Positions 31,322 through 33,126 of a stretch of 64,000 bases of DNA are shown here, in pieces. The notes below the pieces were generated by a model, which saw nothing but the letters and a program-made list of their open reading frames with translations, was not told the DNA's origin and did not search any database. The first letter of the stretch is position 1. Each line of letters starts with the position of its first letter. Source of the DNA: Myxococcales bacterium (GTDB lineage: Bacteria; Myxococcota_A; Polyangia; Polyangiales; DASUME01); contig JASGJH010000001.1 in assembly GCA_047601445.1 (NCBI GenBank), positions 192,001 to 256,000 of the forward strand, read 5' to 3'. Made by a program: the position numbers and the translations under genes.

Positions 31322-32479
31322 TCAGCTCAACGCCTCTGCCAGCTTCTGCTCCATCTCTCCGATGAGCTCCGGACTCACGTCCAGAGCCGGCATGAAGCGC
31401 AGCACGTTGGGCCTCGCCGCGTTCACCAGCAGGCCGAGCTCGAAGGCCCGGTCCCGCACGCGCTCGGCGCGCGCCTCCGGGAGCACCATACCCCAGAGGT
31501 GTCCGTTACCCCGGAGTCGGGCGCTTGCCTGATCGCTCAGTCTCCGCAAGGCGTTCTCGAGGTACTCGGAGCTCGTCTTGCGCAGGGCGCCGTGAAACTC
31601 GGTGTTCAGGGTGTCGAACACGGCGATCGCGCCGGCGCACATGAGGGCGTTGCCGCTGAAGGTTCCGCCGTGGTCTCCATGGTCGAAGCAAGCGACCTCG
31701 CCACGCGCCAACATGGCTGACACGGGCAGCCCTCCGCCCAGGCCCTTGCCGAGCGTCATGATGTCTACGCGGATGCCCTCGCCTGCGTGGGCGAACATGG
31801 GCCCAGTGCGCGCCATGCCGGTCTGCACTTCGTCTGCAATCAGCAGCAGACCCTTGCGATCACAGAGCGCCCTAACTTCGCGTAGGTAGCCTGCCGGTGG
31901 CACCACCGCCCCCGCCTCGCCCTGGATCGGCTCCAACATCACGGCCACCGTGTCGGGTCCAATGCCCGCTTCGAGCGCGCTTACGTCTCCGAAGGGCACC
32001 TTGCTGAAGCCCGGAACCGCGGGGGGAAACGCGCGGTCCCAGCCGGCTTTGCCGGTGGCGCAAGTCATGGCCAGGCTGCGTCCGTGGAAGCTGTCGACGG
32101 TAGTGATCACCTCGAAGGCCCCCTGCTTGTGCTTCTGCCCCCACTTGCGTGCGAGTTTCACCGCGGCCTCGTTGGCCTCCAGGCCCGAGCTGGCGAGGAA
32201 CACGCGCTCGAGCCCGCTGGCGTGCGCGAGCCGCTCCGCGAGCGCCACGGCGTTGGCGTTGAAGTAGGCCGGGCCCACGTTGACGAGCTGGTCCATCTGC
32301 TGGCTCAGGGCGCGCTTGAGCACCTCAGGGGCGTGCCCGAGGCAGTTCACGGCCCAGCCCTGGATGAAGTCGAGGTAGCGCCGTCCCTGGTCGTCCCAGA
32401 GCTCGGAGCCCGCGCCGCGCAGCATGGCGGTGGCGGGCCGCTTTCCGAGTTCCATCAAGTGTTGCGACAGATTGCCCAT
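31322..32479 (-). CDS. argD: Acetylornithine aminotransferase (class III PLP)
   Basis: YLDFIQGWAVNCLGH, SFHGRS, EPIQGEAG, DEVQTG and TLGKGLGGG. Confidence 0.9.
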   Translation of the reverse strand: MGNLSQHLMELGKRPATAMLRGAGSELWDDQGRRYLDFIQGWAVNCLGHAPEVLKRALSQQMDQLVNVGPAYFNANAVALAERLAHASGLERVFLASSGLEANEAAVKLARKWGQKHKQGAFEVITTVDSFHGRSLAMTCATGKAGWDRAFPPAVPGFSKVPFGDVSALEAGIGPDTVAVMLEPIQGEAGAVVPPAGYLREVRALCDRKGLLLIADEVQTGMARTGPMFAHAGEGIRVDIMTLGKGLGGGLPVSAMLARGEVACFDHGDHGGTFSGNALMCAGAIAVFDTLNTEFHGALRKTSSEYLENALRRLSDQASARLRGNGHLWGMVLPEARAERVRDRAFELGLLVNAARPNVLRFMPALDVSPELIGEMEQKLAEALS

Positions 32480-32538
32480 GACGTTCGTCTCTCCTTCGGG
32501 GGAGACCGCCGAACGGAGAGGCCGTGCGCACCAATGCG

Positions 32539-32564
32539 AAAGGCCGCCCCGGGAGGCGGCCTTT
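32539..32564 (-). terminator. Attenuator-type terminator hairpin in the argD 5' leader
   Basis: Minus strand AAAGGCCGCC-TCCCGG-GGCGGCCTTT (10-bp perfect stem) followed by CGCATT; U-tract is short. Confidence 0.7.
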
Positions 32565-32597
32565 GCTTAGCGTGGTCTGTGATGAACCGGGGCCGCC

Positions 32598-32684
32598 TCA
32601 GGTAGCACGACGAGCGCGTGCAGCTGCACTACGAGCAGCGCGGGCACGGCGGGCGAGCTTGGAGGCGGTGGAACGAGTCAACAC
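32598..32684 (-). CDS. Putative Arg-rich leader peptide MLTRSTASKLARRARAARSAAARARRAT (28 aa)
   Basis: GTG 32684 to TGA 32598; 8 Arg codons (5 CGT); lies between a promoter and a terminator upstream of argD. Confidence 0.65.
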   Translation of the reverse strand: MLTRSTASKLARRARAARSAAARARRAT

Positions 32685-32691
32685 GGGTCTG

Positions 32692-32720
32692 ACCCTAACA
32701 GCTCGGGCTATCAGGGGCAA
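32692..32720 (-). promoter_or_regulatory. Sigma70-type promoter for leader-argD
   Basis: TTGCCC-17 nt-TAGGGT with extended TGn; 7 nt upstream of the leader GTG (leaderless start). Confidence 0.55.
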
Positions 32721-32739: not shown

Positions 32740-33126
32740 TCAGCCGAAGTCTCGCTCCACGCGTTCCTGATCCTCTTTGCAGCGGATGCAGAGCGTGGTC
32801 TCGGGGCGGGCCTCGAGACGCTTGATGGAGATGGGCTCCTCGCAGGACTCGCAGTTACCGAATGTGTTGTCTTCGATGCGCTTGAGAGCTTGCTCGATCT
32901 TGTCGAGGAAGAACCGCTCACGACCGCGCAGGCGGAAGGTGAAGGACTGCAGATACTCGCTCGACGCCATATCCATCTCGTCCGGCAGATCGTTGGTATC
33001 CAACGTCATGTCTTCCTGGAGGCTGTCCTTGGCGGCCTTGATCAAGGCATCGCGCTTCTCTTCGAGAATCGTCTTGAAACGCTTGAGATCCGTCTTCTTG
33101 AGCGCTTCGGACTTCTTGGTGGTCAT
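32740..33126 (-). CDS. dksA: DksA/TraR C4-type zinc finger protein
   Basis: DEMDMAS coiled-coil tip; CESC...RLEARPETTLCIRCK; ATG 33126. Confidence 0.9.
   Translation of the reverse strand: MTTKKSEALKKTDLKRFKTILEEKRDALIKAAKDSLQEDMTLDTNDLPDEMDMASSEYLQSFTFRLRGRERFFLDKIEQALKRIEDNTFGNCESCEEPISIKRLEARPETTLCIRCKEDQERVERDFG

Follow-up and report, generated by a model that had tools for sequence, protein, structure and literature searches.

The window analysed here, a stretch of 64,000 nucleotides, belongs to a GC-rich genome of 9.5 Mb that is 98.7% complete and holds 7121 genes according to our own gene calls. On the minus strand, a dksA-like gene is followed by a compact intergenic region and an argD-like aminotransferase gene, and an earlier note had read this region as a candidate arginine-sensing attenuator. 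The features are collected in the table below.

Features of the putative attenuator module and its neighbours (positions in the window)
Feature	Positions	Strand	Remarks
-35-like hexamer TTGCCC	32715..32720	-	TTG-start hexamers at comparable spacing in relatives
-10-like hexamer TAGGGT	32692..32697	-	17-nt spacer from the -35 hexamer; 7 nt to the leader start
Putative leaderless leader ORF	32598..32684	-	28 codons; GTG at 32684, TGA at 32600-32598
Strand 1 (protector), CCGCCTC, codons 6-8	32662..32668	-	Predicted fold
Strand 2 (antiterminator), GAGGCGGCC, overlapping the stop codon	32591..32599	-	Complementary to the hairpin 5' arm and loop
Strands 3 and 4, terminator hairpin	32539..32564	-	-19.2 kcal/mol; kept in the genus
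Short U-tract UUUCGCAUU, 5 U in 9 nt	32533..32541	-	Attenuated RNA expected to end here
Hairpin over the argD Shine-Dalgarno sequence	32487..32506	-	Predicted fold
argD-like class III aminotransferase gene, 385 aa	31322..32479	-	Putative controlled gene; ATG at 32479; PRK03715 type
dksA-like gene	32740..33126	-	Upstream context, outside the module; TIGR02420 103.2 bits, cut-off 115.5

The promoter words and the GTG behind them were found on the minus strand where the earlier note had placed them, and a codon count upheld its 28-codon ORF with 8 Arg codons, 5 of them CGT (the other 3 are CGC); the same ORF has 10 Ala codons. The antiterminator across the leader stop codon likewise proved complementary to the 5' arm and loop of the hairpin. 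The terminator hairpin lies at the claimed position but is not the 10-bp stem described, as it has 11 pairs including one G-U and a loop of 4 nt. A consensus promoter and terminator scan of the window called neither the leader promoter nor the terminator (0 found). The gap between the dksA stop and the -35 hexamer is only 20 nt, and dksA lies directly 5' of the leader promoter, with no terminator between, in 5 of 8 genus-group loci, which could make the hairpin a terminator for dksA transcripts as well. Between the terminator and the argD start there is a second GGCGGTC copy together with an anti-Shine-Dalgarno stretch (window 32487-32520; also L002 and L003, its closest relatives). Classical attenuators are described as a short ORF with cognate codons followed by an antiterminator and terminator before the gene (PMC2836559, PMC5314783); judged from its sequence, the window has all of these structural elements, namely an Arg-rich ORF, a terminator and an antiterminator that excludes it.

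The caveat that Arg/Ala-rich ORFs arise easily in GC-rich DNA is a real one. CGT makes up only 12.3% of the Arg codons in the host genome, so that at least 5 CGT among 8 Arg codons is improbable (P=0.001 against coding usage); a total of 8 or more Arg among 27 codons is likewise improbable (P=0.0006 against coding usage). A detector that scores promoter-like words, a short ORF and a hairpin while ignoring Arg content called 102 of 7120 genes in the same genome, with the window leader obtaining the top score; 35 of the 102 calls were loosely Arg-rich. In a GC-rich genome of 9.5 Mb, codon statistics alone are not decisive, and the leader is distinguished from a chance ORF because it is conserved in relatives. 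Apart from this leader, no convincing classical attenuator was found in the genome with the leaderless detector. The host tRNA set contains tRNA-Arg(UCG) beside tRNA-Arg(ACG), as well as a tRNA-Leu(AAG) call; all 8 Arg codons of the leader would be read by tRNA-Arg(ACG).

Conservation was followed first within the genus, where 7 of 9 genomes hold a PRK03715-type argD. All seven argD loci display, by eye, an Arg/Ala-rich ORF, an antiterminator and a hairpin, one of them being cut by a contig end, and in the genus leaders a GGCGGC-type strand lies at the Arg run or behind it, with a GGCCGCC hairpin following. The wider clade sample comprised 114 loci including the window; its sources were 40 genomes among 401 of the order Polyangiales, a single further one in the phylum sample and the best 80 of 585 GTDB matches listed (at least 585 in total); L119, a duplicate of a counted locus, and L109 and L112, which have no upstream DNA, were excluded. 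The Arg-blind detector found the promoter-ORF-hairpin arrangement at 78 of the 112 evaluable clade loci, and 76 of these 78 leaders are Arg-rich, in agreement with the expectation of the earlier note that relatives would have such an ORF. Calls were made at 6/7 loci of the window's own genus, 16/33 of other order members, 1/1 of other Myxococcota, 26/28 in Alphaproteobacteria, 25/26 in Burkholderiaceae, 4/12 in other Betaproteobacteria and 0/5 elsewhere. At other argD loci the same detector made 0/22 calls, a weak control because many of these genes are internal members of operons; the tree moreover places two of the 22 (L113, L116) in the clade itself. The remaining 34 of the 112 evaluable loci gave no call; the detector misses leaders that show up with a version selecting ORFs by Arg content (L004, L040, L041, L043, L044, L052 and L057). 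It was relaxed once, with the sequences already seen, to admit alphaproteobacterial promoters that lack the last T; the Arg-selecting version was kept out of all counts. The clade loci are related by kinship, and the independent evidence amounts to approximately four lineages.

The leaders differ in sequence between lineages, with MLTRSTASKLARRARAARSAAARARRAT in the window, MKLNRTNRRACLRRRSSDDGLRRVRRQR as an example from Bradyrhizobium and MNRIQSELRRRRSPLP in Paraburkholderia. Their length ranges from 14 to 39 codons, and apart from Arg content there is no common peptide sequence. In 75 of the 78 leaders the start codon lies 6-9 nt past the -10 word, and a Shine-Dalgarno-like motif precedes it in only 2/78. 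The upstream neighbours of the module are unrelated among loci and some are divergent (L005, L071, L139, L145), indicating that the module travels with argD and not with dksA. A FastTree phylogeny places the window protein together with those of Burkholderia and Bradyrhizobium. In Myxococcota, Alphaproteobacteria and Betaproteobacteria, the module accompanies the PRK03715 argD clade.

Arginine is the sole residue that occurs at least twice in all 78 leaders, and it occurs at least four times in 74 of them; its mean share is 29.4%, compared with 12.9% in the control calls from the host genome, and the leader frame is richer in Arg than both other frames in 63/78. The three core Arg columns are occupied solely by CGT, CGC or CGA, in alternation, in 25/25 Burkholderiaceae and 26/26 alphaproteobacterial leaders. 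Relative to the argD gene, CGT and CGA are enriched and CGG and AGR depleted in the leaders of the three well-sampled groups; in the window's own genus, CGT accounts for 49% in leaders versus 6% in the argD gene. CGT and CGA are the starvation-sensitive Arg codons in E. coli.

The composition of the leaders also bears on whether the attenuator senses alanine, in addition to arginine or instead of it, in the window's lineage, the enzyme then serving alanine or amino-group balance. Ala codons outnumber Arg codons in the window leader by 10 to 8. In the genus, Ala is commoner than Arg and surpasses its share in the other frames by a wider margin (Ala 30.4% vs 12.3%, Arg 25.9% vs 15.8%); Ala makes up 21.9% of leader residues in other order members, and the leader uses GCT and GCA, uncommon codons that each contribute 7% of Ala usage in the host genome. 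An alanine-sensing uORF is, moreover, reported for mycobacterial whiB7. Yet Ala is present at least twice in only 42/78 leaders, it falls to 5-6% in Bradyrhizobium and Burkholderiaceae, below the level of their other frames and with many leaders devoid of it, and Arg is the one residue common to leaders across the clade. We therefore regard alanine sensing as unlikely. Two leaders of the order, L136 and L143, have only 2-3 Arg codons with several Ala and Cys codons, which could reflect a drift of specificity within the order.

The peptides themselves might matter if the leader responded to a small molecule or to ribosome-targeting stress through its nascent chain, as in SpeFL/orf34 or in basic-X-basic antibiotic arrest, and not to uncharged tRNA. 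RAR-type repeats do recur in the genus leaders, and at Salmonella speF a leader ORF is reported to mediate the effect of arginine and ornithine (PMC6386406). However, the peptides resemble each other only in Arg content, they vary in length as described above, the position of the Arg run shifts (codons 9-12 in Burkholderiaceae, 12-26 in the window), and a peptide sensor would have no need for the bias towards CGT, CGC and CGA, which renders a nascent-peptide sensor very unlikely and leaves the decoding of Arg codons as the preferred reading.

Considering that a ribosome covers part of the leader, we folded the RNA with a footprint of 13 nt masked from the first P-site base. In the window, strands 2 and 3 are predicted to form a 9-bp duplex of -19.5 kcal/mol that is better than 60 of 60 shuffles. 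With a ribosome stalled at each of the 8 Arg codons, the probability of this duplex, P(2:3), is 1.0 as long as strand 4 is not yet made; a ribosome that has reached the stop codon covers strand 2; and in a ribosome-free leader strand 2 is contested by codons 6-8 and P(2:3) is 0.52. Once strand 4 is present, the terminator prevails at equilibrium despite a stalled ribosome (P 0.84-0.98), implying that the switch has to be kinetic. Folding of both conformers, a check proposed by the earlier note, therefore bears out the antiterminator before strand 4 appears but not at equilibrium. The geometry, in which at least two Arg codons leave strand 2 free and the stop position masks it, is found in 72/78 leaders, which supports, as far as modelling goes, the claim that a ribosome at the stop would mask the antiterminator and one stalled at Arg codons would free it.

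Antiterminator pairing surpasses dinucleotide shuffles at p≤0.05 in 34/78 leaders, including 6/6 in the genus, when the terminator arm is taken out to the hairpin midpoint; a shorter arm definition yields 25/78, and 0/26 for Alphaproteobacteria. Pairing of leader regions with terminator arms, for which a quarter of the cross pairs was sampled, is strongest within a lineage, with values of -20.9 for the genus against its own arms and -14.2 and -11.4 against those of other groups, -16.0 versus -11.9 and -10.6 for Alphaproteobacteria, and -15.4 versus -12.0 and -12.7 for Burkholderiaceae. Other order members have only a weak preference for their own arms. Antiterminator and terminator thus change together between lineages, a covariation for which the earlier note had proposed to test, whereas the genus-level DNA alignment is too gapped for pair counting. 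An upstream partner of strand 2 resembling strand 1 was seen in relatives, a tally made with no shuffle control.

Published RNA data on orthologues support the position of the start site. In B. cenocepacia J2315, the primary transcription start site of BCAL2701 is listed at 2967641, at -194 (PMC4603805), and BCAL2701 (aminotransferase class III, 1185 nt) agrees with our locus L107 in length, promoter and leader. A short 5'UTR of 156 nt is tabulated from the base of this start site, with terminator 'yes' and no designation (PMC5688073 Table S3); according to these coordinates, the RNA has the leader AUG at its 5' end and the terminator U-tract at its 3' end, so that the predicted terminated RNA is on record for this orthologue. 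In B. diazoefficiens USDA110, a gTSS of blr4582 is given at 5073555, with a peak of 93 in nodules and 8 in free-living cells, approximately 12 times (PMC4842269). The 60-nt promoter listed for blr4582 matches those of L105, L106, L111 and L115, its last base lying 0-1 nt ahead of their AUG. The same gene, named argD2, is listed as strongly raised in a phaR mutant, with values of 48.9 and 18.2, and PhaR is reported to bind weakly at its promoter (PMC10888616); one predicted PhaR box (-170) lies inside the leader ORF. Transcription from the leader start codon, as the earlier note had claimed, is hence borne out in the Burkholderia and Bradyrhizobium orthologues, and in both BCAL2701 and blr4582 leader and gene follow one upstream start. 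By analogy with these start sites, we infer that transcription in the window starts at 32684, at the leader start codon. Of 24 public sequencing runs listed, all in the form of contigs, none exceeded 0.38 of the words, and the 4 that were compared with the DNA gave no information on RNA ends or levels.

The Burkholderia version of the module corresponds to Rfam family RF02884 (BcKCsr7), whose model takes in the -10 box, the leader AUG, the Arg run and the terminator ahead of Burkholderia argD and begins 14 nt before the mapped start site. It matches 2 of 6 loci, L107:2762-2929 with 166 bits and L099:2676-2836 with 134 bits (gathering threshold 59), and has no match to the Bradyrhizobium or myxobacterial versions. 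No Rfam family reached its gathering threshold in the window, and RF02884 is absent from the 7 weak matches listed at E≤10. The RNA has been tabulated as the sRNA RIT34/nc5U30/Bc_KC_sr7, with no function given in those entries (PMC6321483, PMC10987360), and the filed family makes no link to an ORF or arginine in the material available. RF02884, labelled as an sRNA, is probably an attenuator RNA.

This filing, the short distance between dksA and the promoter, and the loosely Arg-rich third of the control calls (35/102) could also be accommodated by a constitutive terminator that ends dksA read-through, or by a trans-acting sRNA, with the ORF incidental to GC-rich DNA. Such an arrangement would not explain why the module stays with argD under different and even divergent upstream genes, why the start codon is at +1, why change at the Arg columns is synonymous only, or why the antiterminator covaries, and we consider it extremely improbable. 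The RNA may nevertheless have an additional role in trans.

As to the mode of termination, a U-tract of at least 5 U follows the hairpin in 49/51 alphaproteobacterial and Burkholderiaceae leaders versus 4/22 Polyangiales-type leaders. In the host genome, 97 of 360 strong gene-end hairpins reach 5 U, which places the window tract within the top 27%. Rho (PF07497, TIGR00767) was not found in the host genome or in 9/9 genomes of the same genus. Given this rank of the tract and the failure to find Rho, intrinsic termination is the simplest reading of the sequence. Of 41 genomes of the order searched, 3 yielded a Rho and the other 38 none. Rho-dependent control of the leader was considered and rejected, as Rho was not found in the lineage. 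A translational switch at the argD Shine-Dalgarno sequence was likewise rejected, its accessibility undergoing no consistent change across loci. Weak U-tracts in the order and the hairpin over the Shine-Dalgarno sequence in the window could suggest that the Polyangiales element acts on argD translation through this hairpin and not on termination; but forcing the antiterminator state raises accessibility in only 2/7 order loci, and there only to 0.18-0.25, and the window U-tract ranks high among the strong gene-end hairpins of the genome. We assign a next to negligible probability to the translational version and retain intrinsic termination.

It is highly probable, in our view, that the module is a leaderless, ribosome-mediated transcription attenuator sensing charged tRNA-Arg, whose leader would be translated and whose read-through would depend on arginine. 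Conservation, the start sites of orthologues, the terminated RNA, the geometry and the missing ArgR support this claim of the earlier note. Transcription would begin at the leader start codon, as it does in the orthologues, and a ribosome would initiate on the leaderless mRNA. When arginine is plentiful, the ribosome would reach the stop codon and mask strand 2, strands 3 and 4 would pair, and an RNA of approximately 150 nt would be released. When Arg-tRNA is scarce, the ribosome would stall on CGU or CGC codons and strand 2 would capture strand 3 before strand 4 is made, a pairing that is predicted by folding to let RNA polymerase read into argD. If no ribosome translates the leader, strand 1 is predicted to sequester strand 2, making termination the default.

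The best NCBIfam family of the gene downstream is PRK03715, with 450.7 bits under a curated cut-off of 568, and the best PDB matches of the enzyme are acetylornithine aminotransferases. The genome also contains an argB-argD-argF cluster, and a higher-scoring TIGR00707 paralogue exists in each of 5 carriers, which may be the catabolic AstC in some of them. Within the clade, Trp occupies a site in 113/114 proteins where other argD products mostly have Ile, an N-terminal site that is Tyr in 18/24 others does not count Tyr among its common residues, and Gly is found in 109/114 at a Ser/Thr site. We take these three alignment sites to be substrate-binding positions, and the residues there raise the prospect that the substrate of the PRK03715 clade may differ from that of canonical ArgD. 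The designation of the gene as argD thus holds insofar as NCBIfam and PDB place it with ArgD-like enzymes, but the gene is a second copy that scores below the cut-off and has altered columns.

ArgR (PF01316) was not found in 41/41 genomes of the order or in 5/5 proteobacterial carriers; the AraC-type ArgR of pseudomonads is of another kind and lies outside a PF01316 search. No such leader was seen, by eye or with the detector, in the upstream regions of argB, argC and argG of the host genome, and no similar leader was found upstream of argC-type-2 and argG in 5 other genomes. The only argC found matches as two segments whose frames differ, split around 726870 (G000:C1:726550-727585; L031, L032), owing to a frameshift or an assembly error. 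Considering the second argD-like copy and the other arg genes that have no leader, it is odd that only this step should be attenuated. A speculative and rather doubtful extension is that the gene encodes a starvation-induced aminotransferase of different chemistry, a one-step bypass to ornithine, with leader and gene forming a portable two-part unit shared by three groups and the released RNA possibly acting in trans, as its entry among sRNAs suggests; such a bypass enzyme would explain the attenuation of one stand-alone gene and not of a pathway.

To our knowledge, textbooks do not count arginine among the amino acids for which leader-peptide attenuation governs the synthesis genes. The module resembles trpL, hisL, leuL, thrL, ilvL and pheL in its clustered codons, its 1:2, 2:3 and 3:4 strands, its intrinsic terminator and the biosynthetic gene it precedes; unlike these, it has Arg codons, a leaderless start and one stand-alone gene instead of a pathway operon, and no kinship in sequence with them is expected. 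In actinobacteria, leaderless regulatory sORFs with codon clusters, the poly-Cys attenuators, control downstream genes; the likeness is the leaderless uORF, while the phylum and the amino acid differ. In Salmonella orf34 (speFL), ribosome pausing at Arg codons is reported to alter RNA folding (PMC6386406), so that it shares an Arg-codon leader ORF before a gene, but the gene is the ornithine decarboxylase speF, control works via Rho, Shine-Dalgarno access and RNase G, and there is no intrinsic terminator or antiterminator. In S. aureus rbfL, an Arg-codon uORF is described as sensing arginine limitation (PMC13009471), with rare AGA/AGG codons, occlusion of the downstream ribosome-binding site and a biofilm regulator repressed at low arginine as the differences.

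In the literature searched, mostly outside subscription papers, no attenuator of an arginine-synthesis gene was found. The main texts of PMC2836559 and PMC4833913 mention none; argD is not mentioned in the main text of PMC8632094, arginine in that of PMC5314783, arginine or argD in that of PMC2965389, arginine or attenuation in that of PMC4603805, and BCAL2701, a leader peptide or arginine in that of PMC5688073. The remark of the earlier note that it knew of no characterised example for arginine accordingly stands, within this literature, for biosynthesis, but not for Arg-codon leaders in general, which are known at speF and rbfL.

For lineages that lack ArgR, the literature searched offers no arginine-sensing gene control, and the module supplies a candidate. 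It is present in culturable organisms, namely Bradyrhizobium diazoefficiens (argD2), Paraburkholderia and Burkholderia, and since the start site, and in one case also the terminated RNA, is already mapped in culturable carriers, a single reporter could test the idea. If it is true, classical attenuation in Gram-negative bacteria can rely on leaderless initiation, an Rfam sRNA family would be recast as an attenuator RNA, and a widespread argD paralogue would be flagged for a study of its substrate.
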